IMG/VR virus record: IMGVR_UViG_3300044638_008494
Location: 43,023 to 107,022 of that record
DNA from: a virus
Strand: one strand, 5' to 3'
Length of the DNA stretch: 64,000 nt
Each line of letters begins with the position of its first letter. The first letter of the stretch is position 1. This document shows, in pieces, positions 1 through 57,795 of this stretch. The notes below the pieces were generated by a model. It was not told where the DNA came from, ran no database searches, and worked only from the letters and a program-made list of their open reading frames with translations. A program made the translations under genes and the position numbers.

Positions 1-1145
1 CTCAATCCTGTTGGTACGCCACTTTTATACAAATTAACAGTAATGCCTGTTATGGTCCAATATTTTTTATGGTACTCTTGAATTCCGCTCTGTTGAAAAA
101 TTCTTCCACCAAATTCACTATTTGTGATATAGCCATTAGATGTATTACTGTATATATTTTGATTATTATTAGTATTGCTTGATAATATTAAATTATTCTT
201 TACCGGAAGATCAAAATTAAACCATGCAGTTGTATTTGCAGTATTTGGCTTTATAAACCATGATCCAGTAAAACTATCTTGATATCCATTTAAAAATCTA
301 TTATTGTTTTGCAAGCCAGACAAAGTTACAAAAAATCCAGAAGTTTTAGAATAGGTGCTATATAAGTCTAGAATAATATTCCAGTTTGAATATAAATCTG
401 AAATATTTAGCGTATCCAAAGATCCAACAACTACATTTCCTACAACGCTTAAAACGCCTGATTCAAGTGGATTTGAAAATCTTAATATTGATAATGTTTG
501 ATTTATAGTTCCAAAATTTGTATTTAAAACTAACGGAAGATAATAGCTAGAATACGGTTCGCTTTGTAAAATTGTTAAATCTACGTAAGACTGTGGATCT
601 ATCTGTATATTTTTATTTTGATTTCCAGAAAAAACAAAATAATTAGTAGCGTTACTTGTAGGATTTATATTAATATCATGTACAACAAATGGAAATGAAT
701 TATTTTGATCGCCAGATATTTTTAAATTTAATGGATTTTTATAATAATCAGCCTGCTTATATATAATATTATATAACGGCCTGTCTCCATTTATTTTAAT
801 ATCTAAATCTTTTTCAAAATTCAAACTACCGTTCCAAGATAAATTTATTCCAGAGCAAAATCCATAATCTCCTGTTGTATTATAAATAATATTATTGTCA
901 ATAGATAAATTAAAATTATTTTTTGATAAATTTCCAGATAGATTAAAAAATTTATTTTTTGGATCAACAAAATATATAAAATTATCACTTTTATCTTTTA
1001 TCTTGCCACTTTCTATTGTAATTTTTTCTCGCACATTTTGAGATAAAAAATCAAAATTCGTACTATAAAAATTATCATAATTCATATAGCTTATGCTAAA
1101 TGATATTCCACTTTGAGGATAAAAATTTATACCAGAATATTTCAT
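1..1145 (-). CDS. Probable virion/tail protein, truncated by the left window edge (not in ORF track)
   Basis: ATG at 1145 overlaps the TGA of the upstream gene (ATGA); reads MKYSGINFYPQSGISFSISYMNY...; frame open where checked (start and window edge); last gene of the tail cluster. Confidence 0.7.
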   Translation of the reverse strand, partial: MKYSGINFYPQSGISFSISYMNYDNFYSTNFDFLSQNVREKITIESGKIKDKSDNFIYFVDPKNKFFNLSGNLSKNNFNLSIDNNIIYNTTGDYGFCSGINLSWNGSLNFEKDLDIKINGDRPLYNIIYKQADYYKNPLNLKISGDQNNSFPFVVHDININPTSNATNYFVFSGNQNKNIQIDPQSYVDLTILQSEPYSSYYLPLVLNTNFGTINQTLSILRFSNPLESGVLSVVGNVVVGSLDTLNISDLYSNWNIILDLYSTYSKTSGFFVTLSGLQNNNRFLNGYQDSFTGSWFIKPNTANTTAWFNFDLPVKNNLILSSNTNNNQNIYSNTSNGYITNSEFGGRIFQQSGIQEYHKKYWTITGITVNLYKSGVPTGL

Positions 1146-28689: not shown

Positions 28690-30699
28690 TTAAATATATC
28701 TTAAAATAGTTAAATTTCTAATTGTTGTATAATTATCTATCTCTTCTTCTGGTTTTATTACAAGTATTTTTCCATCATTAGTAGAATTTAAAGCGTATGC
28801 AATTTTAATTCTTTTTCCACCAACAGGATCTTTTGTTAAATTTCCAACTAGCACATTGGATAAATATAAAATATCTCCAGCATTGTAAGTTGATGTGTTT
28901 ACGCCCCCAACAACACCAAAAGTTGTAATAAGACCCTCCTCATTATTTAAAATATTATGTGTTGCTACTCCAATTAAATGAGAAGTGTGGAAATCATTGC
29001 TTCCAATTGCTGGCCAAATCCTCGGTCTATTTCCTTGCACTCCTGAAATGTAAACAACCATCCCATTAGATATTGTGCTATTTGATTTATTAACTCCGCG
29101 AACATATTGTTCTTGCCCAATATTTAAAGTAACATCTGGCTTATCTAAATAAGCATTAAATGTTTTTGTATCATCGCTGTAAAAAATTCTACCCTCTTTA
29201 TATGGGATATTAGCATCTAAATTTGTAGCAAAATCAATAGTATTAAAATTTCCACTCGTATATTTAACAGTTATATTTTGTGATGGGTAACCATCCTTAC
29301 TAATCTCTATCCCGCTTACGCCATCTATATCTACTGCGCCATATGAATTATTTAAACTTGTAATTCCAGAATTTCCCGCCTCAACAAGTCCTGTCAAAAA
29401 TCCAGAAAGATAATAAAAATCTCCGGTCATTTGCCCAGAAAAAGAATCAACATATCCAGAAATTTGGTTTATATTATTTGAATAATTATTTAATGTTCCC
29501 GTAACTATACCTGAAAGCGTGTTAAAGTTTCCGGTAATTTGTCCAGATAATTGAATAAATGCGCTTGTCAAATCATTTTCAAAACCAGAATATTGCGCCC
29601 AAACCTGTCCAGAAAATGTTGTATACTGCCCAGTTATTTGTCCAGAAAAAGTATCAAATTGATTTTGTAATCCGCTAGTAAAAACATCATAAGATCCTGT
29701 TTGGAAACCTCCGGAAAATATTTCAAATATATCTTGGGTAACAACATTTTTAAAATAATTAGCCGAAGATATTGACCTTCCACCAAGAACAATATTTAAA
29801 TTTCTTAAATCATTAAGGCCATTATAAAGATCTACCCCTACAATTTTTCTAAATGGAACATAAAATGGAGTATCGAATCTTTTCCAATTTGCAAAACTAC
29901 CCGTACTTAAATTAAAAGCCGCTATTGTATATTTTATATCGTCTTTTGGATCTCTATAATAAAATCTCCCACTAAGAGGAGTGACTGGCGTTAATGGGTC
30001 TAGATTTAATGTTCCCCATCCGGTAGTCATCGAATATATTCCCCACCGTGTTGCTACAAACTGATTCGCGCTATAATATTCTAAAACTCCTTCTCCGGTA
30101 ATTGCCCCATATTCTAAAAAGAACGATATAGCAGCATCACCACTTGACATAATTACGCCTTGGCTGACATTTCCTTCATAGAGATCATGGTATCTACCTC
30201 TTAAAGAAACAGATAAATCTTCAGCATTAGGAAGGCCAGAATAAATATCCCAGCCTAAAATACAATCGCCACTAACTCTAGTTTCTGGTATAACCCCAGA
30301 GCTATAATATTCAGTACCACTAATATAAAACGGTGCAATAATTGTTTTATCTAAAGGATCATATAATGATCTAATATATATTGCTCCGCTCAATGTTGAT
30401 CCGGTAACGCCAGGTATTCTTAAACTACAACTCCATCCAGTAGCTAAATAATTTGATGCATTATATTCTTCGTACAGTGCTATTCCAGTATATGGATATG
30501 ATGCAAAAAAATTTGGAGGCTGTAAGCCTATTTCTGATGGCAGTACTACAAATTGATTATTACCAGGCACAACAATAGGCCTCTCGTCAAGAAGCAATGT
30601 CTCCTCCCAATCATCAAGCCTAATATTTACACCGCTTAAATATAGCTGAGCTACACTTAGCGTTGAATCAGACCTTCCAAATCTTAATTTATTAGTCAT
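28690..30699 (-). CDS. Fibre-like virion protein (two beta domains, SG-periodic coil, C-terminal fibre/decoration-like domain)
   Basis: Two copies of a domain also present in 47136-50258; 11-residue FSGQ periodic segment; C-terminal NKSNSTISNGMVVYISG...IGVAT...GDILYLS. Confidence 0.55.
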   Translation of the reverse strand: MTNKLRFGRSDSTLSVAQLYLSGVNIRLDDWEETLLLDERPIVVPGNNQFVVLPSEIGLQPPNFFASYPYTGIALYEEYNASNYLATGWSCSLRIPGVTGSTLSGAIYIRSLYDPLDKTIIAPFYISGTEYYSSGVIPETRVSGDCILGWDIYSGLPNAEDLSVSLRGRYHDLYEGNVSQGVIMSSGDAAISFFLEYGAITGEGVLEYYSANQFVATRWGIYSMTTGWGTLNLDPLTPVTPLSGRFYYRDPKDDIKYTIAAFNLSTGSFANWKRFDTPFYVPFRKIVGVDLYNGLNDLRNLNIVLGGRSISSANYFKNVVTQDIFEIFSGGFQTGSYDVFTSGLQNQFDTFSGQITGQYTTFSGQVWAQYSGFENDLTSAFIQLSGQITGNFNTLSGIVTGTLNNYSNNINQISGYVDSFSGQMTGDFYYLSGFLTGLVEAGNSGITSLNNSYGAVDIDGVSGIEISKDGYPSQNITVKYTSGNFNTIDFATNLDANIPYKEGRIFYSDDTKTFNAYLDKPDVTLNIGQEQYVRGVNKSNSTISNGMVVYISGVQGNRPRIWPAIGSNDFHTSHLIGVATHNILNNEEGLITTFGVVGGVNTSTYNAGDILYLSNVLVGNLTKDPVGGKRIKIAYALNSTNDGKILVIKPEEEIDNYTTIRNLTILRYI

Positions 30700-41451: not shown

Positions 41452-42582
41452 ATGAATGTTTTTTTAAGAAAATTTAAAGAATACAATATTTCTCCAAATA
41501 TTGGTATAGGCGGCTATTGGAATATAGCAATAGTTAACAAAAATGGCCAAGAAAAATTTCCATTTGGTCATCATATGAAAAAAAATATGATACTTGATCA
41601 AGGACTTGACATATTAGCTTCCAATAAATATTATACTAGTTATGGCGGATTGAACTGGAACGCCACTTCTGCATTTCTATTAGGCGATGCTGTCCTTGGC
41701 GGATCTTCTATACCAGTAAGCCCTTCAGACGTTTCGCTTAACAATGAGTTACAATCGACTAATATTATTAATGATGATTCTTGTACAATAAATGATGATT
41801 ATATAAATGGATCCAGAACTTTTAGAAAAGTTTATGACTTCCAAACCCCCCAATCTCCAATAGCGGTAAGAGAGTTTGGAATTAGAACTAGATTTAATGC
41901 CGTGAACAATCAAAATAAAATGTTTTCAAGATTTGTGTTGCCTGAAAATATTTCTATAGGCACGCAAGAATTTGTAAGGTTATTTTATGATTTTACAATA
42001 AAATGCGATGCAATTGTTAATCCCATAAATGTTACAAGATCTTCCGGAACATTAAACTGTAATGGTGTTTTAAAATTATGCGGCAGATTTGATGATATAT
42101 TCGGAGCATATGATGCTAATGGAAATCCAATTATAAGATACGGAGATTCGCCCCAATCAACATTTATGCCATATTGTGAAGAATTTTGTGTGCAGGAAAA
42201 TTGCTTGCATAAATGCATCGGCACTGCCTATTTAATAGCGGACATATTTATACCAACTAGTCCCGGCTCATCAATTATTGGCGAGTGGGTTGGTTCAAAA
42301 CCAACAGAGGATGAAAATACAGTAATAGCATCATCATATATAAATGGCAATTTTTACAGAGACATAACATATATATTTGAAAGAGGAAATCCTTTTGAAA
42401 ATAAACCCTTTCAAGGTTTTTTATTTAGTACGGCAAAGTCTGATAGAGAAAATACGGTAGCCGGATGGTTTTGGGAATTTAATAATAAACAAATTAAATT
42501 AATAGAAAAAGAAATTGTAATACAGATAAGGCAATCTATGTCAAGGATAGATACGCCAGATACCATGTCGTATGCACCATAA
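41452..42582 (+). CDS. Tail-fibre attachment-like protein, family B
   Basis: PFG...KN.ILD...SRTF...YDF...E.G...SRF.LP...YDF motif set shared with 42572, 53656 and 54806. Confidence 0.6.
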   Translation: MNVFLRKFKEYNISPNIGIGGYWNIAIVNKNGQEKFPFGHHMKKNMILDQGLDILASNKYYTSYGGLNWNATSAFLLGDAVLGGSSIPVSPSDVSLNNELQSTNIINDDSCTINDDYINGSRTFRKVYDFQTPQSPIAVREFGIRTRFNAVNNQNKMFSRFVLPENISIGTQEFVRLFYDFTIKCDAIVNPINVTRSSGTLNCNGVLKLCGRFDDIFGAYDANGNPIIRYGDSPQSTFMPYCEEFCVQENCLHKCIGTAYLIADIFIPTSPGSSIIGEWVGSKPTEDENTVIASSYINGNFYRDITYIFERGNPFENKPFQGFLFSTAKSDRENTVAGWFWEFNNKQIKLIEKEIVIQIRQSMSRIDTPDTMSYAP

Positions 42583-45500
42583 TCAAAGCAATAATATTAA
42601 AGCAGATGCCAATGCCGATGCTTTTGTATCGGCAAAATGGAATATTCAGATATGCCAATCTGGAGATATTGACGGTTCTAAAACAATATACCCGTTTGGT
42701 AAAAAAATGAGAAAAAATGCCATTTTAGATAACTGGCTTAGATCGGTAATATTACTATTTCAACAAACTCAATCAAATGTGAAGACCTTAGATGGGTCTG
42801 TAAATATGCGAGAGCTTACTCGTGGATATATACAATTAGGAACCGGAATTAAACCAATATCTTATTCAGATGTTCAATTATCATCATTTATAAGAGAGAG
42901 TGATTATATAAGGCCCTTTTATGGGTTTGAGACTGGTTATGGAATAATAGAATCAGGCGCAGCAATTTTTAGAAGAAGTTATGATTTTTTACCAGAAGTT
43001 AAAAATATAACATATACAGAGGCTGGTTTCAGGCCATACGCCGCATCTCTTATAAACGATAATAATTTAAAAAATAAAATATGGTCTAGATTTTTGTTTA
43101 CTGCAGAAACAGGAGTGATAGGCTTTTTAAGCGGATATATAGATAATAGTGGTATTTTTAGAATGTTTGATCATGAGATTGATCATGTAAGTGGTGTTTT
43201 TGTAGCCAATGATAAATATAATATTTCACCATTCAAATCCCGAAGAAATGAAAGAATAATTGGATTTGTAAGCGGATTTAGATTTCCAAACGGGCAATTC
43301 TCTGGGTATGCTCCAGACCCAAGATATAACTTAAGTGGTTACTTTGTAAGCGGTACAAAATATAATTTTAATCCAATTACAGAACTTTCCAACCAGCCAA
43401 TAACAGGTTATATATCTGGATATGCAGATGAGTTTGGTAATTTTTCAGGGTTTAGTAATCGTTCAATATCTGGAGTTAGTGGTTATTTTATAGATAATAA
43501 TGCTTACAAATTTAAACCAAATAGATATTTTGAATCGGAAACGATCACTGGCTTTATAAGCGGATCAATTGACAAATACAATAATTTTTCAGGAAATATT
43601 AACAATCCTTCAAGTGGGTATCTAATAAATAGCGAAAAATATAATTTTCCAACAGGAAATATGTTTTCTGGCTTTTCAGGTCAAGATTATTTTTATGACG
43701 ATTGGGGTTATAATTATAGTGGATTTAATAATATTAACAGTGGATTTTCAGGCAATAATAAATTTAATGAAAAAATAATTGGATATATAAGTGGATATTT
43801 AAATGTATCTGGAGTTTTTTCCGGATTGAATCTTTTGAATACATCATCCGGATCAAGTGGTTATTTTATTGACAATCAAAGATTTCAATTCCCATCCATT
43901 GGATTTAATAAATTTGATAATCAATATTTGTTTAACAAAAACATCGGATATAATTATACTGGGTTTAACTTTGCTGATGGTAGTGGATTTTCTGGCGTAG
44001 AATTTGGCAATTCTGGCTTATGTATAGTAACTGGATTTATTGGTGATAGAAATTTTTATACAGGAAACGGCATTTATACTAATGATATTGGAAATAGAAT
44101 TTTATTAAAATATAGTGGAGAATTTAGCGGTTTTGATGGAGAAATATTAACTCAAGACATAAAAACATATTCATATTCAACTGTTAATTTCTTCATTAGC
44201 GGAACTAGTGGATTTAGCGGTATCAGTGGAGCGATATCTGGTTATGGAATATTAACAGGAATAATTGGTAGCCGCACAATATTTTATAAAAGTGGTCAAT
44301 TCGAAGCCTTTGAAAATAATCAATTATTTCAAAAATATTTGGATTATAAATATACTGGATTTTCTTTTCCGCAAGGTAGTGGTTTTTCTGGTACAGATTT
44401 TTTAAATTCCGGTCACGGCATAATGACTGGATTTATTGGAGATAGAAATACAGTTAATTTTTCTGGTAGATACAGTGGCCTGAGCGGAATACCAACTCAC
44501 GAATATGGATGGTACTATACAGAAGAAGGTTTTTTTGGCTCAGGGCTTCCAAATTTTACAGGAACTTTTACTGGCGGAAAATTTGATATAGGCCTAACTG
44601 GATTTAGCGGAACACCATTTCCTTCTGGAGAAAAAATTATAGGTTTTATAAGTGGATACGTAAATGAATTAAATAGTTTTGTTAGATTTGACAACGTCAA
44701 CGTTCCAAATTTTACAGGATATAGTGGTTATTATACAGACAATAGACAAAGATTTTTTCCAACAGGAGATTTATTCTCTGGATTTTCTGGGCAAAGCGGC
44801 TTTGATGCTAATTTGCAATACAGATTTACGGGGTTTAGCTTTCCAGAAGGAAGTGGTTTTTCGGGAAATGCCTGGCCTATAATTCAGAAAGAAAACGTTG
44901 TTGGATTTATAAGCGGTTTCATGACTGAAGTTCAGCAATTTATACCATTTCAAAACCTATATCCAGAACTATCATCAAGCGGATATTATATCAGTGGAGC
45001 CCAAAGATTTTTTCCAACTGGAAATTTATTCTCTGGATTTTTTGGACAGTCAGGGCTAGATGTGTCAGCATATGAATATTCTGGATTTTTCTTATCTGGC
45101 CCGAGTGGTTTCAGTGGTGCCAACTTTATTGGATCCGGAACTGGAATATTAACTGGAATTATAGGATATAGAAAATATCCAACATACCCATTTTCTGGAA
45201 GTGGAGTAATAACTGGATACATTGGCGACCGAAATGTTTTAAAATATAGCAATACTGGCATACTTACAGGACTTATTGGTTACAAAGATTATATCTCCGG
45301 TGTCCAACTTGAATATGGTCAATTTGTTAGAGTTACTTATGAAGTTATGAGCCGTATCCCAATGCTTACTGGAGCAATTCAAGTAACAGGGTCTAATTTA
45401 GTAGACGGAGGTTTTAATGCAAGTGGACAATTAAAGCTTATTGGTTTATATGAATATATTTTTGGCTACTGGAAAATGAGAAACAACGGAAGACACACTG

Positions 45501-46282
45501 AAGGGCCATTTGTTGAAGGCTTTTGGTGGCCATCAAATCCGGTTCATTGCTTTAGAGATTGGAGAGTTCCTAATGTTGCCTGCCCATACCCGCTAACACA
45601 TTTAAGTGCAAACTTAATACAGTCTGGGTATGGAACATTTCCGCCAATAGATCAAGTGCGAAGATTACCAGCAGTTAACTTCAATAATGATGAGGCTGGC
45701 TGCATGACAGCATCTACTAGAGGCCCTGACTGCTCACAAGGAGCAAATCAATTTATTTTAGATATTAAAAGGCAAGTAAGGTGGTCTTCAAGGGAGGAAA
45801 TACCAGATGATGGAGATGATAGAATAGACTCTCGTGTTCCAATCTATCCCGTTGTAAGCAATGGTCTTGTTCAAGAAACTTATGACCAAAACACAAAGCC
45901 AGCATATGTAGATATAAAAATAATATTTCCAGCAGAATATCCAAATGCAGATGTTGCTATTAATGGTATATATATATCACCATCAATAGATGAGTGTGTT
46001 TTGTGTCAAGGAGGAAACAGTTGCTTTAATCAATTCTTAAAACCTTACAGTCCAGATCCTGAATGGATAGTCTACCCGTGCAAATCTGGATGGACACCAG
46101 ATCAAGGAGACTATCATGTTGTAAAAAATGAAGATATGCCTGACAGTATAAAAGCAAGCTATGGGATAAGCGGCAGGCAGGGCGTCGGATGGGCATATCT
46201 TTTCAACACGCCGCAAATGAAATATGAAGATCAAAAAATAGAAGTAGATTTTAGATTTTCTATGGTTAGAGACATAATATAA
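42572..46282 (+). CDS. Family B fibre protein carrying seven nested SG modules
   Basis: Family B domain split between WSRFLF and GVQLEYGQFVRVTY by a ~730-aa SG/TG-rich insert. Confidence 0.65.
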   Translation: MHHNQSNNIKADANADAFVSAKWNIQICQSGDIDGSKTIYPFGKKMRKNAILDNWLRSVILLFQQTQSNVKTLDGSVNMRELTRGYIQLGTGIKPISYSDVQLSSFIRESDYIRPFYGFETGYGIIESGAAIFRRSYDFLPEVKNITYTEAGFRPYAASLINDNNLKNKIWSRFLFTAETGVIGFLSGYIDNSGIFRMFDHEIDHVSGVFVANDKYNISPFKSRRNERIIGFVSGFRFPNGQFSGYAPDPRYNLSGYFVSGTKYNFNPITELSNQPITGYISGYADEFGNFSGFSNRSISGVSGYFIDNNAYKFKPNRYFESETITGFISGSIDKYNNFSGNINNPSSGYLINSEKYNFPTGNMFSGFSGQDYFYDDWGYNYSGFNNINSGFSGNNKFNEKIIGYISGYLNVSGVFSGLNLLNTSSGSSGYFIDNQRFQFPSIGFNKFDNQYLFNKNIGYNYTGFNFADGSGFSGVEFGNSGLCIVTGFIGDRNFYTGNGIYTNDIGNRILLKYSGEFSGFDGEILTQDIKTYSYSTVNFFISGTSGFSGISGAISGYGILTGIIGSRTIFYKSGQFEAFENNQLFQKYLDYKYTGFSFPQGSGFSGTDFLNSGHGIMTGFIGDRNTVNFSGRYSGLSGIPTHEYGWYYTEEGFFGSGLPNFTGTFTGGKFDIGLTGFSGTPFPSGEKIIGFISGYVNELNSFVRFDNVNVPNFTGYSGYYTDNRQRFFPTGDLFSGFSGQSGFDANLQYRFTGFSFPEGSGFSGNAWPIIQKENVVGFISGFMTEVQQFIPFQNLYPELSSSGYYISGAQRFFPTGNLFSGFFGQSGLDVSAYEYSGFFLSGPSGFSGANFIGSGTGILTGIIGYRKYPTYPFSGSGVITGYIGDRNVLKYSNTGILTGLIGYKDYISGVQLEYGQFVRVTYEVMSRIPMLTGAIQVTGSNLVDGGFNASGQLKLIGLYEYIFGYWKMRNNGRHTEGPFVEGFWWPSNPVHCFRDWRVPNVACPYPLTHLSANLIQSGYGTFPPIDQVRRLPAVNFNNDEAGCMTASTRGPDCSQGANQFILDIKRQVRWSSREEIPDDGDDRIDSRVPIYPVVSNGLVQETYDQNTKPAYVDIKIIFPAEYPNADVAINGIYISPSIDECVLCQGGNSCFNQFLKPYSPDPEWIVYPCKSGWTPDQGDYHVVKNEDMPDSIKASYGISGRQGVGWAYLFNTPQMKYEDQKIEVDFRFSMVRDII

Positions 46283-46283
46283 T

Positions 46284-47126
46284 ATGTTTAATAGGCAAGG
46301 TACAGATTTTGTAAATGGTCTTGTATATCCGCTTATAAATGCAGCGGGTGGTGAAGATAAATTTTTAAGACACGAAATCGGAGCACTCTCTGAGCTTGCA
46401 GATGCACTAGTTCAATTTAATTTATGGAATAAATTTATAGCCATTTATCCATTTGTGGGAAGAAATATAATCACATCGTCTTTTAATTTTAAAAACCCAC
46501 AACAATATAGAATATCATGGTATGGCGGATTACTTTTTGATAAAAATGGCGTTACAAACAATACAAACTCCTCTTATGGCCAAACAAATATTCCACTGAC
46601 TTTTTTTCAAAAGAATATTAATAATGTTCATATTTCTGCTTATAACAGAACAGACATAAAAGATGTTATTGGAGATGGTAGAATGATTGGTGTGAATACA
46701 TTAGAAATTGAAAGAAATGTAAAAGATATGGGGGCATTTGAACTAAACTTTGGCAATAACAATGGGATTATTGGATATGTTTATAACAAAATAAATGATC
46801 TGGGAGGCTTTGGTCTTCTAAGAAACGAAATGATAAGTAGTGGTATTTCTGGCAAAGGCCTGATGATAGGTCTTAATACAAGCCATTGCTATCTAAATGG
46901 CCAAACCTTTGGGCGCTGGTTTCCGGCATTACCAACGGAAATTCACGATACAAATAATAAAACATTATTATTATTTGGAAATAGATTTTTTACAAGAGTT
47001 ACTTCGAGTGCAAATATCAACCTGTCATTTGCTAGTGTTGGTTATGGATTAAATAAAATAGATGTATATAATTATACAAATATTGTAGAAAACTTTCAAA
47101 AAGCAATGTTCAGATCAGCACTGTAA
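46284..47126 (+). CDS. Virion protein, family A
   Basis: LWNKFIAIYPFVGR...HISAY...LLFGN...FASVGYGL, matching 40204-41421. Confidence 0.6.
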   Translation: MFNRQGTDFVNGLVYPLINAAGGEDKFLRHEIGALSELADALVQFNLWNKFIAIYPFVGRNIITSSFNFKNPQQYRISWYGGLLFDKNGVTNNTNSSYGQTNIPLTFFQKNINNVHISAYNRTDIKDVIGDGRMIGVNTLEIERNVKDMGAFELNFGNNNGIIGYVYNKINDLGGFGLLRNEMISSGISGKGLMIGLNTSHCYLNGQTFGRWFPALPTEIHDTNNKTLLLFGNRFFTRVTSSANINLSFASVGYGLNKIDVYNYTNIVENFQKAMFRSAL

Positions 47127-47135: not shown

Positions 47136-50100
47136 ATGCCAAGCGTCTTTTCCATCGAATCTATCAATCTAAATGGCTCATTATTAACAGCCAATAATGA
47201 TAGGCTGTACATAAATGGCCAACAAGTAAAAAATACTTCTGGTGTTCAAATAAGCGAAAACTTTTTTATAAAAGGATATGCGCCTATTTCTTTTTATAGC
47301 CGATGGGCGGTTAGAGGTCAATATTTAAATGAAACATTATTGAATGACCTATTTATGGCCACTGGGTATGTTATTACCTGCGGATATCCAGCAACAGGAT
47401 CTATACCTTTGCAGGGAAGATTTTATCAAAGAAAAGTAGATTCAGTCATAGATGTTAAGCCAATAGCTGATTTTGAACTGCCACCAAGACAGGTGTATGT
47501 GCAAAAAGCTATTTCTGAAAAAATATATCCAGATAGTGTTTTGGGCCTTGATATAGCGCAAGCGCCAAATGAAATGCGAGCAATATCATGCCATTTGCTC
47601 GGATATTTTCCAGCGGCTGGCCACTTTGATAAGATGCCAAGAACTTTTAATTTTTATAGCCAATCTGAGCCAAAAGTTGGAAATGGAGCATACGAAGAGT
47701 ACATGCAATATAACGCAACATTTACAGGTGTTTCATTGTATTGTAGCGAAACGGGTCGTGGCCCAACCACATACCGTCAAGAAATAACAGGATATATAAG
47801 CGGATTTTTACAAAACGAACCGTTATATATTCCACTAAGTAGAGAGGCTGTTTATCAAACTTGTGATCCGTGCTATTCTCCACCAAATATGAGTGACTGG
47901 AGTGGATATTTTATAGATGGTAAAAAATATAATTTTAATACAGGAAATCAATTTTCTGGATTCAACGGAATATCTTTATTCTCGCAACAGTCTGGTTATG
48001 AATATTCTGGTTTTAAATTAAACAGCGGTACGTTTTTCAGCGGCTACTCTGATAGTGAATATGGGTTTGGCGAAATGCTGGAAACAGTAGGGTGGAGAGT
48101 GGCGCCATATCCAGAAACTGTTTCCGGCTTTATAAGCGGATACAGAACATCTGGCGGTAGTTTTATATTGCTTAGTGAAATAACAGGCTCTCGTGTTAGC
48201 AATTTTCCTCTTGATCCTAGCGGATATATAATAGGATCTAGTGGTTACTTTTTGAGTGGACAACAATACTTCTTCCCAGATATGATGCCAAGAAGGCAAA
48301 AAGTGGTTGGCTTTTTAAGTGGGTTTATGAGTAGTAATGGTATATTTACCCCATACCATACAACCAATCCTTTTACAAGCGGAAACAGCGGTTACTTTAT
48401 AACAAGACAATATTTTTTCCCAACAGGAAGATTTTTTTCTGGCTTTTCTGGTATGCCAGGCTTTTTAAATAATGCTACTGGTTATGGTTTTGTTTATTCT
48501 GGATTCGGTTTTCCAGAAGGTAGTGGATTTTCAGGCATGCAATTTACAACATCTGGAAGCGGCATAATGACTGGGATTATTGGTACTGGTGTTGTAATTC
48601 CAGATACAATATTTACAAGATTCAGCGGAATGTTTGGGTTTCAAGAAAATATGGGGTATGAATACTCTGGAATATTTTCAGATATATCAAGTAACTTTTT
48701 TTCCGGAATATTTCCTGATAGTTCTGGGGGAATTACTGGAATGGTAATTGGAAAAATTGGATATAGAAATGTTCCTACAAGGCGAGAAATTTCTGGCTTT
48801 ACAAAAGCCAAGTCTGTTACCAATTTTAGTGGATTTAATATTACTGGAAATAACATATCTGGCCTTAGCGGATATTTTATAGACAACAGGACAGTTTCAT
48901 TTTTAACAGGCGCCCCAAACCGCGATCTTTTAATAAAAGGCTTTGAAGGTTTTGATAATGAAAGTGGTTTTGATAATTTTGGATATGAGTATTCTGGGTT
49001 TCTTACAATGCCAAGCAGTGGATTTTCTGGACTCGGTATGCCATATCTTTTTTCAGAGCCTGTGACTGGATTTGTTAGTGGATTTTTAAGCGGACAAAGT
49101 AATACATTCATTAGGTTTACTGGATTTTCTGGTTCTAGCGGATATATCCTTGACGGAGACAAATATCATTTTCTACCAGCAAGATGGAAGAGTGGTCAGA
49201 ATATAAGCGGCTTTCAAAGTGGCACTGTAGACATATCCACCGAACAATTTGTACCTTTCAGCTTTCCAAATTCATCGAGTGGTTATTACATAAATGGAGT
49301 TCAATACTTTTTTCCAACAGGAACTGGGATAGATAATAGATTTAATGGATTTGATGATTCGCTGTTTGGATTTGACATGTCTATTGGATATTCTTATACT
49401 GGATTTGCAGGATTTAGCGCGGCTACAAATTTTAATCAACCGCCGAGGTTTCAAAAAGTTATTGGGTATATAAGTGGACTCCAAGATACATTCAATAGAT
49501 TTACCGGATTTCAACTTTTAAATTCAGCGTCTGGCTCAAGCGGATATTTTATAAATGGCAGAAGATATGTTTTTCCAATTTCTAATATGAGTGGATTTTC
49601 TGGATTAGGCCAGTTCTTTTATAATAATTTGGGCTTTTCATATACTGGATTTAGTTTTCCAGAAGGTAGTGGGTTTTCCGGTACAGTTGCTCAGCCATAT
49701 ACCCGAGGAATAATGACAGGCTTTATTGGTTTTAGATTGCTGCCCTCAGGTACTGGCATGATTACTGGCATGATAGGCTCTCGAAATGTTCCGCAAAGTT
49801 CTGGAACTTTTAATGGATTTAATGGGCTTAGCGGGTTCAATTTACAACAGGGCTACCAATACAGTATAGATATAAATACTTTTAATTATACAAATGCTAA
49901 TTTTATAGGTGAAAGCGGTCTAACATCTGGTCTTGGAGTTATAACTGGAAATATTGGGTATAGAAACGTGATCAGGCTTGATAAAAATTTTGGGACAGGA
50001 ATAATAACTGGAATTATAGGTTATAGAAATGTGCCATACATGAGCGCATTTAGCGGAAAATTTTACCGAAAAGACAAGTATGGAAATAAAAATATTCTTT

Positions 50101-50258
50101 TTCCATTTTCTATAAATTCTGGTGAATTATATAAAGAATATGACTCTAATTCTGTTGGATTTTTTATATCGGGCGGTAGCAGGCTAGGAATAGATATAGA
50201 CAATACACTTTCAGGAATTGGTGGTGTTAATATAGTAATGGAAGGTTTTTACGATTAA
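47136..50258 (+). CDS. Virion fibre protein carrying seven nested SG modules
   Basis: Two copies of the 28690-type domain; the second is split by a ~750-aa SG insert. Confidence 0.65.
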   Translation: MPSVFSIESINLNGSLLTANNDRLYINGQQVKNTSGVQISENFFIKGYAPISFYSRWAVRGQYLNETLLNDLFMATGYVITCGYPATGSIPLQGRFYQRKVDSVIDVKPIADFELPPRQVYVQKAISEKIYPDSVLGLDIAQAPNEMRAISCHLLGYFPAAGHFDKMPRTFNFYSQSEPKVGNGAYEEYMQYNATFTGVSLYCSETGRGPTTYRQEITGYISGFLQNEPLYIPLSREAVYQTCDPCYSPPNMSDWSGYFIDGKKYNFNTGNQFSGFNGISLFSQQSGYEYSGFKLNSGTFFSGYSDSEYGFGEMLETVGWRVAPYPETVSGFISGYRTSGGSFILLSEITGSRVSNFPLDPSGYIIGSSGYFLSGQQYFFPDMMPRRQKVVGFLSGFMSSNGIFTPYHTTNPFTSGNSGYFITRQYFFPTGRFFSGFSGMPGFLNNATGYGFVYSGFGFPEGSGFSGMQFTTSGSGIMTGIIGTGVVIPDTIFTRFSGMFGFQENMGYEYSGIFSDISSNFFSGIFPDSSGGITGMVIGKIGYRNVPTRREISGFTKAKSVTNFSGFNITGNNISGLSGYFIDNRTVSFLTGAPNRDLLIKGFEGFDNESGFDNFGYEYSGFLTMPSSGFSGLGMPYLFSEPVTGFVSGFLSGQSNTFIRFTGFSGSSGYILDGDKYHFLPARWKSGQNISGFQSGTVDISTEQFVPFSFPNSSSGYYINGVQYFFPTGTGIDNRFNGFDDSLFGFDMSIGYSYTGFAGFSAATNFNQPPRFQKVIGYISGLQDTFNRFTGFQLLNSASGSSGYFINGRRYVFPISNMSGFSGLGQFFYNNLGFSYTGFSFPEGSGFSGTVAQPYTRGIMTGFIGFRLLPSGTGMITGMIGSRNVPQSSGTFNGFNGLSGFNLQQGYQYSIDINTFNYTNANFIGESGLTSGLGVITGNIGYRNVIRLDKNFGTGIITGIIGYRNVPYMSAFSGKFYRKDKYGNKNILFPFSINSGELYKEYDSNSVGFFISGGSRLGIDIDNTLSGIGGVNIVMEGFYD

Positions 50259-50267: not shown

Positions 50268-53200
50268 ATGTTACATGAAGATATCATCGATCCGCTTGTT
50301 ACTGATTACATCGACAGAGTTACTGGCGAAGGACTAAACTATTTTAATGCCAACGCCACCACTAGATTAAATGATTTTGTAAAATATTTAGTTAGCGTTA
50401 TTCCGGATAGACAGTTTGGCTTTTACCCGCTCAGAAGTGACCAAAATATCGGTAACGGAAATAAAGCGTTTGGAATAGGCAGGTTAGCCTCTGGAAGTCC
50501 AATGATTTTTCCTGGCTTAGCTCAGTGGACAGAAAGCGGCGTAATGTTTGGTGATAAGGTTAGACCTGGCGGAACGTTTGGACCAACATATGAAACGGTT
50601 GGCATGATAGATTTTTCTGGCAAAGTTGAAGGGGGATTTGCTTTTAGAGAAAATGACTTTTCTATATTTTATTTTTTAAAACACCAAAGAGCTGGTGAAT
50701 TTGCAACCTCACTGTATCGTGGCGAAGGTGGCTTATGCCCATATTTTATATGTGATAAATCTCCAGATTGGTTTCAGGCTATTGCTCCAGAGTTTTCAAC
50801 AAGCCGTTTTCGTCCAAGAGGTACAACATATATATATGATGAAATATTTGGCGAAGATAAAAAAGGATTACAAATAGACTGGAGCCAAAAAGAAACTGAA
50901 AAATATTATGCGCCCACCGCAATAAGTTTTTACGATCCTGATAAAGACCAGACAGAGCCGAGATTTTATTGTCTTAATTTAAATGGAAATTTAAACCATT
51001 ATTCCATGAAATTTATCTACGGCAGAGATCCAAACATGCTTTCTGGAAATTTTTTATCACCATACGTTGCTGTTGCTGGGTTAGAAGGTCAGCCAGTTAG
51101 ATATGATATGCCGAAAAGATTTGTTGCTGGCGCTGGCGCAACAAACGACAGAGCTACAGAATATAACAGAGATGGGTTGCCTCATATAGTTCCTGGTATT
51201 TTAATTACAAAAGGCAATTATTCATATATTCATGAAGAAATAGCACAAAATATGGCTGAAGCTATTGGCTTGCTATTTGCAGTAAAACCAGTACAAATTT
51301 CAGGTCTTCAAGACCATGCTTCTAATATTTGTAGTCCAAAAATCGTATCATTAGATTATTATAAAACAGAACCAAAAATATATGATAAGGTATTACAAGG
51401 ATTTGCAAATTTTACAGCAAAAATAAGCTCAATAATAATTGAAGATTATGGTAGGTGGTTGACTGATTTTATTGCTAGCTTATGCGGAACAGATATTGGC
51501 GGCGTTGTTAGATGTTTTGGTGGATGGACTGCTAGATCTCCAATTGAAAAAGCAGAAATACGCCCAACGCTAAATTCTGGATTGTATATTACTGGCAACC
51601 AAATAACAGGAACATATGGAAATTTAAAATTGGGAGAATTTCACAATAACGGAATAGTAGGTTTTGTTAGTGGATATATGGACGTTTCTGGAAACTTTAG
51701 CGGGTTCCAATCACGTACAATTTCAGGACACAGTGGATTTTACTATACAGGATCTTATAATGTTTTCCCCCCATATCAATTTTTTGAAGTACAAAAAATT
51801 ACCGGATACGTTAGTGGGTTTTTAAACAATAGCGGATCATTCGATATATTTAATTCCACACATCCATATTACAATAGTGGATATTTTTTAAGTGGCCAGA
51901 TTACAGATTTTACATATTCATTAATTGAACAAGAAGATATATCTGGATTTCAATATGGTTTTTTAAATAATTTATTAAATTCTTGGGAGCCATTTGCTTC
52001 AACAAATAAATTATCATCAAGCGGATACCTATTAAATGGACAATTTATTGAATTTTTACCAGAAAAAATAATCGAAAAAACTCCAGTTACTGGATTTCGT
52101 GTTGGTTTTATGAACGGCCTTGGTATTTTTTCTGGATACTCAACTGGAGAAGGTGGTACAAGCGGTATATTATTAACTGGTGACGTTTTTTCTGACGATC
52201 CAAATTCAAGAATATTTTTTCCACTCGATGGCAATTTTGTAGGATTTGATGGCATTTCTGGATTTGATCCCGAAATTGGGTATGAGTATAGCGGATTTGA
52301 TTTTTTTGATTCTAGCGGATTTATTTCTTTTGATCAAGCTAATCCGTTTTTTGGAACCGGAGAAATGACGGGGCTTATTGGTTATAAATACATTGTTTAT
52401 TTATCTGGGGAATTTTCTGGGGAAAATAGCATTACTGGCGTCAATGAAGGCTTTGGGCTAGATTTCAATGGATTTTTTGATGGAGACACTTATTTTTCGG
52501 GAGTTGAATTTGACCCACTAACAAATAGTTTTTTGAATTATGGAACTGGATATTTAATAGGCAAAATAGGTACAAAAAATGTTCAAAACTTTTATGGTGA
52601 TCCTGGTTTTGATAATAGACCAGGGTTTGATCCGCTTGCTGGTTATAGCTATACTGGCTTTTCATTTCCAGAAGGTAGTGGCTTTGCTGGTATAAACGGA
52701 AATACTTTCGGAACAGGGTACATGTCAGGATTTATTGGTTCAAGAAATTTTATTGACTATACTGGCATATATTCTGGATTTACTGGTTTACTAGATAAAT
52801 ACAACCAGTATTTACCATGGGTTATATTTCCAAACTTTGAATTTACTCGAGGAAGTGGATTTATTGGATCAGTTCCTGGTTATGGTTTATTAACTGGAGT
52901 AATAAGTACTGGAGATGTGAGCGGCGATGCAGCGTTTGTTGTAAGCAATATTGGATCAGGCCTTTATCTAACTGGCCTACAAAGAACGGGAATAAATATA
53001 TCTGGTATTGATTTTGGACCAATAGATTTTTCAATTGGAAATATAAGCGGAATGGTTACTGGGGCAAGCTATACTCTCGCTATTATAAGCGGAGGAACGT
53101 TTTTTGAAACAGGATATACTGGATTTAATTCAGGAACAGATTCTGGATATTATGATATAAAATCTGGAACATATATGAGTGGACATATTACTGGATTAAG

Positions 53201-53627
53201 TTATATTACAGGAAATCTGTCAATTGGCAGTGGCTTGTTTTATGAACTAGAAACTGGATTTACGTTTGAGTCTGGATATATTGATGCAAACGTAACAAGC
53301 GTAACATTAACAGAAGCAATCTCTGTATTATTAGTGGTTCAAGACGGTGTTCCAGAAACCACATCTTTTACTTCAAGCATTACTGGTATTATATATGCAT
53401 CGGCTGATATAAATACTGGCCTAAGTATGGAAACTGGATCGGTTTCTGCAACCATCACTTCTATCGATCACTATACATTCTTACGTAACGATGTGACTGG
53501 AAATTTTGAAACTGGTTATTATAATATAAGTGGACTATATAGGATCAGCACTGCATATCCAGCAATAACCGGAGAAAATATATACTACAACATATCTGGA
53601 GTGCTATTAAAAACAGGGTCCCCATAA
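50268..53627 (+). CDS. Virion fibre protein carrying four nested SG modules
   Basis: Family A-like N-terminus, nested SG region, S/T/G-rich C-terminus. Confidence 0.62.
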   Translation: MLHEDIIDPLVTDYIDRVTGEGLNYFNANATTRLNDFVKYLVSVIPDRQFGFYPLRSDQNIGNGNKAFGIGRLASGSPMIFPGLAQWTESGVMFGDKVRPGGTFGPTYETVGMIDFSGKVEGGFAFRENDFSIFYFLKHQRAGEFATSLYRGEGGLCPYFICDKSPDWFQAIAPEFSTSRFRPRGTTYIYDEIFGEDKKGLQIDWSQKETEKYYAPTAISFYDPDKDQTEPRFYCLNLNGNLNHYSMKFIYGRDPNMLSGNFLSPYVAVAGLEGQPVRYDMPKRFVAGAGATNDRATEYNRDGLPHIVPGILITKGNYSYIHEEIAQNMAEAIGLLFAVKPVQISGLQDHASNICSPKIVSLDYYKTEPKIYDKVLQGFANFTAKISSIIIEDYGRWLTDFIASLCGTDIGGVVRCFGGWTARSPIEKAEIRPTLNSGLYITGNQITGTYGNLKLGEFHNNGIVGFVSGYMDVSGNFSGFQSRTISGHSGFYYTGSYNVFPPYQFFEVQKITGYVSGFLNNSGSFDIFNSTHPYYNSGYFLSGQITDFTYSLIEQEDISGFQYGFLNNLLNSWEPFASTNKLSSSGYLLNGQFIEFLPEKIIEKTPVTGFRVGFMNGLGIFSGYSTGEGGTSGILLTGDVFSDDPNSRIFFPLDGNFVGFDGISGFDPEIGYEYSGFDFFDSSGFISFDQANPFFGTGEMTGLIGYKYIVYLSGEFSGENSITGVNEGFGLDFNGFFDGDTYFSGVEFDPLTNSFLNYGTGYLIGKIGTKNVQNFYGDPGFDNRPGFDPLAGYSYTGFSFPEGSGFAGINGNTFGTGYMSGFIGSRNFIDYTGIYSGFTGLLDKYNQYLPWVIFPNFEFTRGSGFIGSVPGYGLLTGVISTGDVSGDAAFVVSNIGSGLYLTGLQRTGINISGIDFGPIDFSIGNISGMVTGASYTLAIISGGTFFETGYTGFNSGTDSGYYDIKSGTYMSGHITGLSYITGNLSIGSGLFYELETGFTFESGYIDANVTSVTLTEAISVLLVVQDGVPETTSFTSSITGIIYASADINTGLSMETGSVSATITSIDHYTFLRNDVTGNFETGYYNISGLYRISTAYPAITGENIYYNISGVLLKTGSP

Positions 53628-53655: not shown

Positions 53656-54741
53656 ATGAATGAAAAAAATATAATTATTTCACAAAATAATGTGGCCGGA
53701 ATAAGTGGAGAATATTTAATCCAAGTTATTAAAAGTGATGGAAGTGTTGAATTTCCATTTGGGCAAGAAAAAAGAAAAAATTTAATACTTGATAGTTTTT
53801 TCCGTGCAATTTTGACTGGATATAAATTTGGAATACAGTCATTCGTACAAACCTGCCGAGTGGGTAATAATATTCAAGCACCAGTTAGAACAAACACAGG
53901 TCTTGTTGGGACTATTCTTGGGCAAACATATAAGAGTGATAATTTTATATCTCAAATAAACAGTCAAAACAATACCATTTCGCTAACACGCGATTTTATT
54001 TTTGACGCTATCCCTGGTGGAATTGGGCAAGTTTCTTATGCCGAGGCCCTAATTGGTAGCTTTGCAATAAATGAAATTAGCGAAATTGCAACAAGTAGAT
54101 TTGTTTTTCCCGGCACGCTAATTTTACAGAGCGGAGATCGCTTAAAAGTACAATATACATTGACGATTTATCTCCCATATTTAAATAGCGATTTGCCAAT
54201 AACGCTGACTGGCGATGGATTAAATTTTACGGGAAAGGTAAGGCTATCATCAAATGTTACTGGAATAATAGGTCAATTGAGCGGCAGTAAAACCTATGTT
54301 GGTTTGGGCGATAGCGACACAACTGTATTTAGAGATTATACAGCAAACAGCAATGCTTTTTCTACAACCACAGAATTTCAAGAATACGGTAGGTATCAAA
54401 ATATTTTTGGCACGCCACTATGGGCCAACAATATTGGTTTTTATCCGAGTGGGCACATTCCAGCCAATTATCCTACGGGAAGGCTTGATTATACACCAAC
54501 AGGAAGCCGAGCAACATTAACAACGGGCCTTATAGATCAAAATGATAATTACAGTTCAGTTCCTATAACATACTATTTCCCACCATTTTCTGGAGATCGC
54601 AGCGTTGGTGGCATATATTTGTGGCACCATAATACAGGCTCATCATACAGCGCGATATATTATTCATTTAATAGTGGGCAAGTAATACCATCCGGGCTGC
54701 CCGTAACAATAACCTTAGACTGGCGATTCTCCAGATCATAA
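53656..54741 (+). CDS. Tail-fibre attachment-like protein, family B
   Basis: FPFG...KNLILD...SRFVFP...LKVQY. Confidence 0.6.
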   Translation: MNEKNIIISQNNVAGISGEYLIQVIKSDGSVEFPFGQEKRKNLILDSFFRAILTGYKFGIQSFVQTCRVGNNIQAPVRTNTGLVGTILGQTYKSDNFISQINSQNNTISLTRDFIFDAIPGGIGQVSYAEALIGSFAINEISEIATSRFVFPGTLILQSGDRLKVQYTLTIYLPYLNSDLPITLTGDGLNFTGKVRLSSNVTGIIGQLSGSKTYVGLGDSDTTVFRDYTANSNAFSTTTEFQEYGRYQNIFGTPLWANNIGFYPSGHIPANYPTGRLDYTPTGSRATLTTGLIDQNDNYSSVPITYYFPPFSGDRSVGGIYLWHHNTGSSYSAIYYSFNSGQVIPSGLPVTITLDWRFSRS

Positions 54742-54805
54742 ATAATAAAAATAATATTTTAATTCCAATTGGATGTGTATATAATAGAGAAAGTAATATA
54801 AAATT

Positions 54806-56050
54806 ATGGCGAATTTAATAATTAATCGTACTCGTGAAGTAGAGGTTGGTACTGAAACATTTGTAAAAGGAATGTGGAAGCTAGAAGTGGTTTGCCCAAA
54901 TGGGGAAATAAAAAAACCATTTGGCGATGGGTGGAGACCAAACTTGCTTATGCGCAGAGGCTTACAGCAGCTAGTTGGCGGCCTTGATGGGTTCTCAAGT
55001 ATAGCATATCTAATGAATACAGCGCAGTACGGTAACGTGGTTACCTCACCAACAGATAGAACTTTTAATGGCGGGCTTGTTAATAGCACAGCCTATCCAA
55101 GTATTACAAACGATACCCAGCTTGGCATATTTGGTTTTAGTGCTTTTAGTAGCGTTGGCGCGGCAGGAAATATAATAACTGACAATTTAAATACTGGATC
55201 AAGAACTTTTCAAAAAACATATGATTTTTTAGCAACACCAAACCAGCAAACAGTAAGAGAAATTATAATAACTGACTATCGGGACCCTAACAACCCAACC
55301 GTTAGAGGTACTGGTCGTGCGGATAGCGACATGCTTTCAAGATTTATATTGCCATCGCCAGTTGTACTCGCTCAATACCAATTTTTGAGACTTACATATG
55401 CTTTGCAAATTACCATCCCAGCAATTACTGCCGCTGGTGAAGTAAATATTGATGTACAAAGCGGAAGTTTTAACGGTCTTGGCAAATTAAGATGTGTTGG
55501 CTCTTTTAATCAAATATTTGGCTCAATGACTACGAATGGTGAGCCAATTGATACTCTTTTTCGTTCTGCATTCTGTGGAAATATTACCAAAAGAAATCCA
55601 TGGTGTCTTGTTAGTAGTTTTAGAACACATGCAACGCTTGTTCCTGGCGGTGACCTGTCTGGAACCGCACAAATGGCATTTCCGGCAGTTAATACAGATG
55701 TTAATGCATCCATAGCAGCACAAACTAGCGCGGCATCTGTTCAAAGTGATGGTGCTGGCGGAAGCGTTATTGATCTAGGGCTTTCAAATGGAAACTTGTC
55801 GTGGACACGAGGTGCAACACTATTATTCCCAGCAACAAATCCAAACCTGCCAGATCAATATATAGGCGGAGTTTTTTTTACGCCAGGAGCTAGTACAGGA
55901 TCTAGCTGTAATACTGCACTAAGTACAGGATTTGACTTTTCTGGCTGGTACTGGAGATTTGTAGATCTTTCTGGAAACCCTCGTGGACAACTCAAAGACA
56001 TTAACTTTGCCCTTGCCATTAATGTAGCACACACGGCATCTATTACATAA
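54806..56050 (+). CDS. Tail-fibre attachment-like protein, family B
   Basis: KPFG...NLLM...GSRTFQKTYDF...SRFILP...LRLTY. Confidence 0.6.
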   Translation: MANLIINRTREVEVGTETFVKGMWKLEVVCPNGEIKKPFGDGWRPNLLMRRGLQQLVGGLDGFSSIAYLMNTAQYGNVVTSPTDRTFNGGLVNSTAYPSITNDTQLGIFGFSAFSSVGAAGNIITDNLNTGSRTFQKTYDFLATPNQQTVREIIITDYRDPNNPTVRGTGRADSDMLSRFILPSPVVLAQYQFLRLTYALQITIPAITAAGEVNIDVQSGSFNGLGKLRCVGSFNQIFGSMTTNGEPIDTLFRSAFCGNITKRNPWCLVSSFRTHATLVPGGDLSGTAQMAFPAVNTDVNASIAAQTSAASVQSDGAGGSVIDLGLSNGNLSWTRGATLLFPATNPNLPDQYIGGVFFTPGASTGSSCNTALSTGFDFSGWYWRFVDLSGNPRGQLKDINFALAINVAHTASIT

Positions 56051-56060
56051 TAGATAAACC

Positions 56061-56726
56061 TTAATTATCTAAAAACTTTAGTTTGATTTTGCCATTGCTG
56101 TCTATTAATGCATAGCTAACTGGCAGGTCGCACTGTGAGCCTAAGTTTACACACTCTACCCCATCCACAGTTTTGTGTTCGGGCATATGGGTGTGACCAA
56201 AAACAACCGTATTGCATCCGAGATCTCGGCCATGATGGGCAACCCGGCGCAACACTCTTTCCGCCGAAGAACGCCACGTTTTTATTTTTCGCTTGAGTTT
56301 CCGGGTGAATTTTTGCCCACGATCTATTTTTTGCAAGAAATAATACACTCCAGATGCTATTTCAGTGAGTACTGGCCGCATTTTAATAATATAATCCCAA
56401 CGATCACCGTGGACAAAATAAAAACGCTTTCCATTAATAACCTCAATGTGTTCGTGTTTAAAATCAAAACCTAATAGCGCACTAACAGTATCCAGATCGC
56501 GGTCATGATTACCCTTAATAAAAATGCATTTTTTATTTTTTGATAGCTTACGTAACAGCGATAATACCTTCCACTGACGTTTGCATAAACGATGAATATT
56601 GTACGAATCCAGCAAATCTCCACATATTATTAAACTATCATACGTTTCCTCTTCAAGTATTTTTAAAACTAAATCTGCTTGGCATACAGGGCTGCCAAGA
56701 TGTATGTCTGAAAGGCACAGTATCAT
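56061..56726 (-). CDS. Calcineurin-like metallophosphoesterase (UDP-2,3-diacylglucosamine hydrolase-like subgroup)
   Basis: SDIHLG, GDLLD, GNHD, HGD and GHTH motifs. Confidence 0.85.
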   Translation of the reverse strand: MILCLSDIHLGSPVCQADLVLKILEEETYDSLIICGDLLDSYNIHRLCKRQWKVLSLLRKLSKNKKCIFIKGNHDRDLDTVSALLGFDFKHEHIEVINGKRFYFVHGDRWDYIIKMRPVLTEIASGVYYFLQKIDRGQKFTRKLKRKIKTWRSSAERVLRRVAHHGRDLGCNTVVFGHTHMPEHKTVDGVECVNLGSQCDLPVSYALIDSNGKIKLKFLDN

Positions 56727-57041
56727 AATGTTTTATATTATTTTTTTTATTTACTACTTTTTACCTCACTTGATTACACTCTTCGACCATTTATAGCATA
56801 TTACAATATAGAAACAAACAGCCCATGCATTTTTAATTCTTTTTTATTATATATGGGTTGATTTTATTGGTGTTAGGATACCCTAGCCCCCTGATAAGTA
56901 AAAGAAGGATAGATTTAAAAGTTGTAGAGTTTTAAAAATAGGCCCCAGCGAGCAAAAGTTCAAACGCTCGTATGAATTTTTTTCAAAAATGGGGGGGGTG
57001 TTTGTCAACAAAAAAAGTTTCATTAATCGTAAAAAAATCCC

Positions 57042-57069
57042 TTGCTTTCTGGCTGTTTTGTGTTACCTT
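57042..57069 (+). promoter_or_regulatory. Sigma70-type early promoter, leaderless
   Basis: TTGCTT-16-TACCTT with extended TG; ATG 6 nt downstream; upstream A tract. Confidence 0.65.
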
Positions 57070-57075
57070 GTAGAC

Positions 57076-57366
57076 ATGAAAGAAATAGAAAACAAATTCA
57101 CCAAAGGACAAATCTACCGCCTCGAGTATCTGTCTCGGATGGGTCGCTTCCACTACCACAACGTAGAGTTCGTTCGCTACGTTGGCCCCTTCTACTTTGA
57201 AGGTCGCTACTCTTGGGATGATAACTCGATCCCTTGCGGCAACTACTGGTTCCGTAACGAAAAGGATGAGCCTACTCAAGTCGTCGAGTGGCAAGTCAAC
57301 GAAAAGACTCAAGAAGTCGAAGCGTTCGGCAAGTGGGAAAGAAACTTCCGCTACCAAGACTGGTAA
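57076..57366 (+). CDS. Early hypothetical protein (MKEIENKF...)
   Basis: Start set by promoter geometry. Confidence 0.75.
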   Translation: MKEIENKFTKGQIYRLEYLSRMGRFHYHNVEFVRYVGPFYFEGRYSWDDNSIPCGNYWFRNEKDEPTQVVEWQVNEKTQEVEAFGKWERNFRYQDW

Positions 57367-57372
57367 AAAATC

Positions 57373-57603
57373 ATGAACACATACGATAACGAAATCATCC
57401 ACAAAGGTAAGGAATACTACCTCTCGACGGAGTATGGCTTTGACCATACTGACACCCTGCAACTCTCGGGCTTTCTCTTGACCGATGAGGATGGAGAAGA
57501 AATCTCGCAAGAGGACTTTGAGGCGAACACCGATCTTTATGATCATGTTTGCACTATCCTCGCAAACGAAAGTGCCGTCTGTTATGGCGGCGCACCTTGC
57601 TGA
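57373..57603 (+). CDS. Early acidic hypothetical protein
   Basis: 76 aa, 6 nt after the previous stop. Confidence 0.7.
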   Translation: MNTYDNEIIHKGKEYYLSTEYGFDHTDTLQLSGFLLTDEDGEEISQEDFEANTDLYDHVCTILANESAVCYGGAPC

Positions 57604-57607
57604 CACT

Positions 57608-57766: not shown

Positions 57767-57778
57767 CACAAATACACG

Positions 57779-57795
57779 TTCAAGAAGTGTGCCAA
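57779..57795 (-). promoter_or_regulatory. Sigma54-like -24/-12 element
   Basis: Minus strand TTGGCACACTTCTTGAA, 12 nt from R1. Confidence 0.5.

Follow-up and report, generated by a model that had tools for sequence, protein, structure and literature searches.

Domain insertion is usually rare, ancient and one level deep. A far deeper case is the SI3 region of the cyanobacterial RNA polymerase beta' protein RpoC2, in which eight domains are recursively inserted over six levels with bifurcating nodes (PMC13114784). These are hybrid-motif domains of the HABAS/SBHM type (PMC13114784, citing the HABAS work PMC11515920). A domain inside a copy of itself, at one level only, is also found in the DysF region of the ferlins dysferlin and myoferlin, where a long strand of 13-14 residues at each terminus runs antiparallel to the other, and the 77-residue loop that connects them contains short strands (PMC3898210).

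The locus described here lies on a linear 107-kb viral contig of metagenomic origin from IMG/VR, which is ~70% complete. We analysed a stretch of 64,000 nucleotides of this contig, bases 43023-107022 (the window; G+C ~34%), and all nucleotide positions below refer to it. The protein p2, encoded in the window, holds seven copies of a ~100-residue all-beta module that are arranged by the bracket grammar ()(())(((()))), and we put the probability that this architecture is genuine recursive domain insertion at about 0.8.

As in SI3, one small beta-domain family is repeatedly inserted into its own copies, the array sits inside a host domain, the tree has branch points, and shallower versions occur in related lineages. 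The p2 module differs in that it belongs to another family, without a Pfam match and with no hybrid-motif chain among the fold matches listed. Furthermore, SI3 is part of a polymerase, whereas p2 is a putative virion protein with two defined insertion sites, and depth varies between phyla in SI3 but among proteins that are 90% identical in p2. New here are the module family, the two fixed sites that give true trees, the fact that one gene cluster uses three different host scaffolds, and the variation of depth among near-identical orthologs.

The phage and its fibre gene cluster

The source is an uncultured, deeply divergent, large-genome phage. The window encodes a large terminase (34083-35987), which reaches at best ~23% identity to that of any GenBank phage, as well as a PhoH-like protein and an ERCC4-type nuclease, and most structural genes of the window matched no PHROG family. 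The structural region also holds one ORF of 3108 residues (8370-17696, minus strand). From 54000 to 64000 the genes are short and the G+C content is higher, at 0.40-0.49 instead of about 0.34.

The gene order is p1, p2, p3. These genes, and a further gene of the window that bears on the host domain of p2, are as follows.

42572..46282, plus strand: p1, 1236 aa, seven modules, ((((|(|))|)|)|(|(|))), on a different host scaffold (HMM parse, rejoining, BLASTP)
47136..50258, plus strand: p2, whole ORF, 1040 aa, in the tail-fibre gene cluster; orthologs 72-98% identical in other metagenomes
50268..53627, plus strand: p3, 1119 aa, four modules in the nest ((((|)|)|)|), with every insertion at site A (HMM parse, rejoining)
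28690..30699, minus strand: 669-aa protein with the same jelly-roll domain as p2 in tandem, unsplit (sequence similarity)

The p1-p2-p3 block is bracketed by two genes on the plus strand, 41452-42582, which adjoins p1, and 53656-54741, which adjoins p3. Both match PHROG 4176, tail fiber protein (E about 1e-8), with the first ~190 residues of their products, and may be paralogues delimiting a variable cassette. The proteins p1, p2 and p3 themselves had no match in Pfam or PHROGs and no DNA or protein match among 50,697 GenBank phage records. Going by its gene neighbourhood, p2 is a putative structural protein of a tail-fibre or receptor-binding gene cluster, and our confidence in a function as a fibre or receptor-binding projection is much less than that in the architecture. 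Phage tail fibres are usually trimeric. Between p1 and p2 lies an ORF of 280 residues (46284-47126, plus strand) without a Pfam or PHROG match; it begins two bases beyond p1, and its stop is followed after ten bases by the start of p2.

Seven modules and two insertion sites

Six motifs follow one another in each module: the opener strand, the hairpin SGYF..FxP, then FSGF, GYxYSGF and SGFSG, and lastly a GxGIxTGxIGxRNVP-type closer. Gly, Ser and Phe are the only residues at invariant columns of the module alignment. The motifs were grouped into an opener, a middle and a closer part (N, M and F), and one HMM for each part was seeded from p2 and iterated on homologs. In p2 the opener, middle and closer HMMs gave 7, 7 and 7 matches, in the order N M F, N [N M F] M F, N M [N [N M [N M F] F] M F] F. 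An earlier note on this DNA had read the same tree, with seven openers and seven closers, by eye; the well-formed HMM parse bears this out and located in the sequence all the break points that it had claimed. The parts of p2 (residue numbers of the 47136-50258 product) are as follows.

47271..47621, plus strand: jelly-roll copy 1, contiguous, aa 46-162 (structure alignment to model 46..160; sequence similarity to the 28690-30699 product)
47622..47756, plus strand: jelly-roll copy 2, N-terminal piece, aa 163-207, ending in SETG (structure alignment; pLDDT ~84)
47784..48116, plus strand: module 1, contiguous, with a degenerate closer, aa 217-327 (profile score 123.5, positions 2-103)
48120..48278, plus strand: module 2 opener part, aa 329-381, split at site A behind YFFP (HMM parts, rejoining; contiguous in P0002 and P0003)
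48279..48611, plus strand: linker and complete module 3, aa 382-492, guest in site A of module 2 (HMM parts, rejoining; missing exactly in P0002 and P0003)
48612..48776, plus strand: module 2 middle and closer, aa 493-547 (rejoined module aligns to profile positions 5-103)
48789..49031, plus strand: module 4 opener and middle, aa 552-632, split at site B behind SGFSG (HMM parts, rejoining)
49032..49178, plus strand: linker and module 5 opener, aa 633-681, split at site A behind HFLP (HMM parts, rejoining)
49179..49421, plus strand: linker and module 6 opener and middle, aa 682-762, split at site B behind GFS (HMM parts, rejoining)
49422..49745, plus strand: linker and module 7, aa 763-870, complete and innermost (HMM parts; AlphaFold2 pLDDT 76, pTM 0.67, all-beta)
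49746..49793, plus strand: module 6 closer, aa 871-886 (HMM parts, rejoining)
49794..49973, plus strand: module 5 middle and closer, aa 887-946, parts at 889-946 (HMM parts, rejoining)
49974..50036, plus strand: module 4 closer, aa 947-967, closer proper at 952-967 (HMM parts, rejoining)
50037..50255, plus strand: jelly-roll copy 2, C-terminal piece, aa 968-1040, its start marked by FSGKFY (similarity to the 28690-30699 product, pLDDT ~84, structure alignment)

Three modules thus stand at the top level of the outgrowth, and the second and third of these carry guests to depths of 2 and 4. The guests are complete units that lie wholly inside the gaps of their hosts (module 3 proper spans residues 390-492 and module 7 proper residues 775-870), which gives four self-nested levels in p2 in addition to the jelly-roll host. 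The opener part of module 1 has an extra loop with a Cys-x-x-Cys pair (47853-47906, aa 240-257). The ortholog P0003 lacks 18 residues exactly at this loop, which is a second, smaller variable site.

The sequence of the array is repetitive and has a strong composition bias, and the contig is metagenomic. This could imply that the outgrowth is a set of unrelated low-complexity arrays of short repeats whose balanced order has arisen by chance or through the assembly of reads over repeats. Each HMM, however, matched the real sequence 7 times and composition-matched shuffles of the p2 core 0.02-0.07 times. If the 7+7+7 parts are put in random order, the result is well formed with a probability of 1.9e-5, which becomes 0.0056 among strings that keep openers before middles before closers. 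DNA copies of the module are 60-89% identical over at most 141 nt, with the maximum of 89% spanning 38 nt, and are thus too diverged to mislead an assembler. Lastly, the same architecture is present in a 98%-identical protein of 1040 residues and in two 72%-identical loci, all from other metagenomes, and since it recurs at these identities in independent samples it is not an assembly artefact. We consider such an origin of the balanced order very improbable.

For recursive insertion, the split modules themselves provide a direct comparison. Contiguous modules, 21 in all, from the window and related loci were used to make a reference profile of 104 positions (alignment A3). When the halves of the 12 split modules of p1, p2 and p3 were rejoined in silico, every one of them gave a single match from positions 4-6 to 100-103, so that the two pieces together make up one contiguous copy. 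Profile scores were 30-105 for rejoined and 95-124 for intact modules. Failure of rejoined halves to align with intact modules over the full length had been set beforehand as the result that would speak against nesting; the alignment was full-length in 4/4 cases in p2 and in 8/8 in p1 and p3. Openers that were left with their actual downstream chain stop aligning at positions 47-60 (site A) or at positions 81-86 (site B), and there are therefore two insertion sites. Site A lies just after FxP and site B is a five-residue turn, from SGFSG to the closer, before the last strand. The window contains 13 insertions, eight at site A and five at site B, and only those two loops ever take a guest. A linker of 7-13 residues precedes each guest.

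The reach of the module was examined in several collections. No sequence match was found in Pfam, PHROGs or the PDB (including a profile search of the latter), and no usable match came from the ESM Atlas. Among 1.84 billion representative proteins, a module profile found 21 clusters, and those examined were all p1-, p2- or p3-type proteins or their fragments. A search for related loci with P0025 found nothing. Judged by these comparisons, the module would be a new family without known relatives in the families searched.

The host domain and the fold of the module

The core of p2 consists of two tandem jelly-roll domains, with an outgrowth of 750 residues, built from nothing but copies of the module, in one loop of the second. 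The earlier note had identified the host as the domain that is duplicated in the 28690-30699 product, split in p2 between SLYCSETG and FSGKFY. Sequence similarity agrees with this, as residues 47-166 of p2 match residues 187-317 of that product (E = 3e-5) and the C-terminal residues 969-1037 match its residues 239-307 (E = 0.002). The split is further supported by structure alignment. With VIA-align, compact jelly-roll chains align to copy 1 on model residues 46..160 (XepA with Z 8.9; nucleoplasmin and C1q/TNF with Z 7-8). Copy 2 is matched by single jelly rolls (adiponectin, TNF, the calicivirus S domain) on model residues 162/165..1040, over about 105 residues with an rmsd of ~3.1 and Z 6.7-7.3. 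Since single chains span 162/165..1040, pieces 163-207 and 968-1040 are packed as one domain in the model. Although 760 residues apart, they thus form one jelly roll in the AlphaFold2 model, both with pLDDT ~84. For the two copies together, Z runs from 8.9 to 6.7 with 86-109 aligned residues and an rmsd of ~3. In the model, the host is therefore assigned at the level of the fold, as a TNF/C1q/nucleoplasmin-like jelly roll, and not at the level of a superfamily. The strand order leads us to infer that strands three and four of the second jelly roll flank the array.

AlphaFold2 predicted module 7, with alignment A3, as an all-beta domain with pLDDT 76 and pTM 0.67. A long strand comes first (5-17) and another last (90-103), with short strands between, and both insertion sites fall between strands. 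Foldseek found no match of the module at E <= 0.001 in the PDB or BFVD. In a VIA-align comparison with 48,161 representative chains, three DysF structures were among the four best matches (4cah with Z 4.0 and 88 residues, 9h6x with Z 3.5 and 8p5p with Z 3.0); they cover 85-88 of 105 residues with an rmsd of 4.4-5.1, and Z values of 3.0-4.0 are not significant. The module shares with DysF the self-insertion and, in its predicted fold, the long terminal strands with short strands between them. It differs in that DysF is defined by arginine/tryptophan stacks, whereas the invariants of the module are Gly, Ser and Phe; both these stacks and a sequence-family match to DysF in Pfam are absent. The predicted topology of the module thus weakly resembles the DysF domain, as a likeness of topology and not as membership.

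The whole of p2, modelled with 25 sequences, reached pLDDT 66.8 and pTM 0.36, with a long strand at every opener and closer. Inner modules had pLDDT 50-60, and in split modules the strand pattern matches at pLDDT 50-85. A complex prediction of the module 5 opener half with its middle-plus-closer half, with an alignment for each, scored 0.08 (mark 0.32), a value that speaks neither for nor against their pairing. The opener of a split module probably pairs with its own closer, the halves packing as they do in intact modules.

Variation of nest depth among orthologs and neighbours

A search of 5.8 billion proteins yielded 46 relatives. The 25 p2 orthologs have 3 to 9 modules in seven architectures.

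()()(): 3 modules
()()(()): 4 modules
()()((())): 5 modules
()(())(()): 5 modules
()()(((()))): 6 modules
()(())(((()))): 7 modules
()(((())))(((()))): 9 modules

The close orthologs P0001-P0006 (918-1235 aa) parse as well formed without manual correction, and in more distant homologs degenerate parts were placed by eye before a well-formed parse was obtained. The automatic parse of the 836-residue P0007, with module 4 inside module 2, was rejected, as it had missed a degenerate closer that is visible in sister sequences.

Orthologous modules keep their places and the differences are whole guests, mostly at the innermost position. P0002 and P0003, which are about 90% identical to p2 at aligned positions, lack exactly residues 382-492, and their module 2 is contiguous, with YFFP leading directly into the FSGF motif. 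In P0005 (1235 aa) and P0006 (1233 aa) module 3 hosts two modules at site B, one inside the other, which results in a second four-deep branch and nine modules in total. A tree of the host domain of the 25 proteins needs at least nine changes of architecture. Sister pairs differ by 1 to 3 modules, such as p2 (7) and P0003 (6), P0008 (6) and P0023 (3), and P0018 (5) and P0021 (4).

A rival explanation holds that the outgrowth is a ribbon that folds back on itself, one continuous out-and-back beta-structure in which the balanced count arises because each outgoing strand needs a returning partner. Its topology is identical to that of nesting, so that the grammar alone separates neither, and the array resembles fibrous beta-proteins in its high content of Gly, Ser, Phe and Tyr. 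Moreover, in the whole-p2 model the last strand of one module is continuous with the first of the next (310-337, 533-561). Four observations argue against it. Firstly, the window has six modules that are contiguous, and related loci bring their number to 21. Secondly, one module alone is predicted to fold, with the scores given above. Thirdly, orthologs gain or lose exactly one whole module, both halves of split ones included. Lastly, the top-level modules stand in tandem, which is unneeded in a single hairpin. We therefore hold the ribbon to be an unlikely alternative to recursive insertion.

The neighbouring proteins carry the same module on other scaffolds. Their parses depend on recognising degenerate middles and closers in gaps, and in p1 two degenerate parts were placed by hand. 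Nests are up to four levels deep in p2 and five in p1. BLASTP found no similarity between the host parts of p1 and p2, in line with the earlier statement that these domains are unrelated. The C-terminal host part of p1 (45287-46279, aa 906-1236) is cysteine-rich and shows no similarity to that of p2; it may form a separate tip domain that is rich in disulfides or binds metal. Members of the p1 family have 2 to about 10 modules. In the 836-residue branch (L010:6093-8126, L012:6070-8121, L013:6082-8121) a p1-type protein of ~680 residues lies upstream of the p2-type gene; it has two modules, one nested at site B, against seven in p1 of the window.

Origin of the nests and their possible role

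The earlier note had proposed that the module colonised different scaffolds independently through the same two loops, and that a tree of the modules would give the order of insertion. The different scaffolds and the shared loops hold, with both loops in use across p1, p2 and p3. Independence and order cannot be read from the sequences, because all 18 modules of the three proteins are about equally diverged (35-52% identity). Parent-child pairs are no more alike than other pairs (0.385 vs 0.383, p = 0.41), so that the proposed tree carries no signal of the order. Likewise, the congruence of N-half and C-half distances under the nested pairing gave r = 0.18, against 0.125 +/- 0.11 in permutations (p = 0.31). 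No recent duplicate was found among the window modules at either the protein level or the DNA level, where the values are those given above. The triple nest m5[m6[m7]] of p2 is colinear with m3[m4[m5]] of p1 at 45% identity, which is not clearly above background; pre-nested blocks may have moved between scaffolds rather than been built twice.

The sequence around the module 3 indel is a mosaic. Between p2 and P0003, identity is 97% in the host domain and 85-87% in module 2. Between p2 and P0004, it is 88% in module 3 and 61-78% elsewhere, except for module 7 at 86%. This pattern suggests that modules may be exchanged by recombination between alleles.

If the architecture is indeed one of recursive insertion, the ends of the module, as long beta-strands that probably lie side by side, would let a copy fit whole into a loop of another, which would stay folded. 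The chain would then run outward via the first halves and back via the second halves, and the presence of two loops that accept guests would produce a tree and not a string. The array would be an exposed projection on a jelly-roll virion protein, its length and branching tuned by the gain or removal of modules, and it would probably serve to reach or bind the host surface. Whole modules would be swapped through recombination between alleles. Recursive self-insertion could in that case be a fast and reusable route by which phages alter the length and branching of a host-recognition appendage, with depth reset between near-identical genomes by exact module exchange at two dedicated loops, and with one polypeptide folding as a tree-shaped projection that is read from a bracket grammar; we offer this wider reading tentatively.

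As a compact and apparently insertion-tolerant scaffold, the module may interest protein engineers. The orthologs with 3 to 9 modules, some of them only about 10% diverged, form a natural series for the stepwise growth of a protein, and this series bears on the folding of discontinuous domains around their guests, on the tolerance of loops and on the length and branching of virion appendages.
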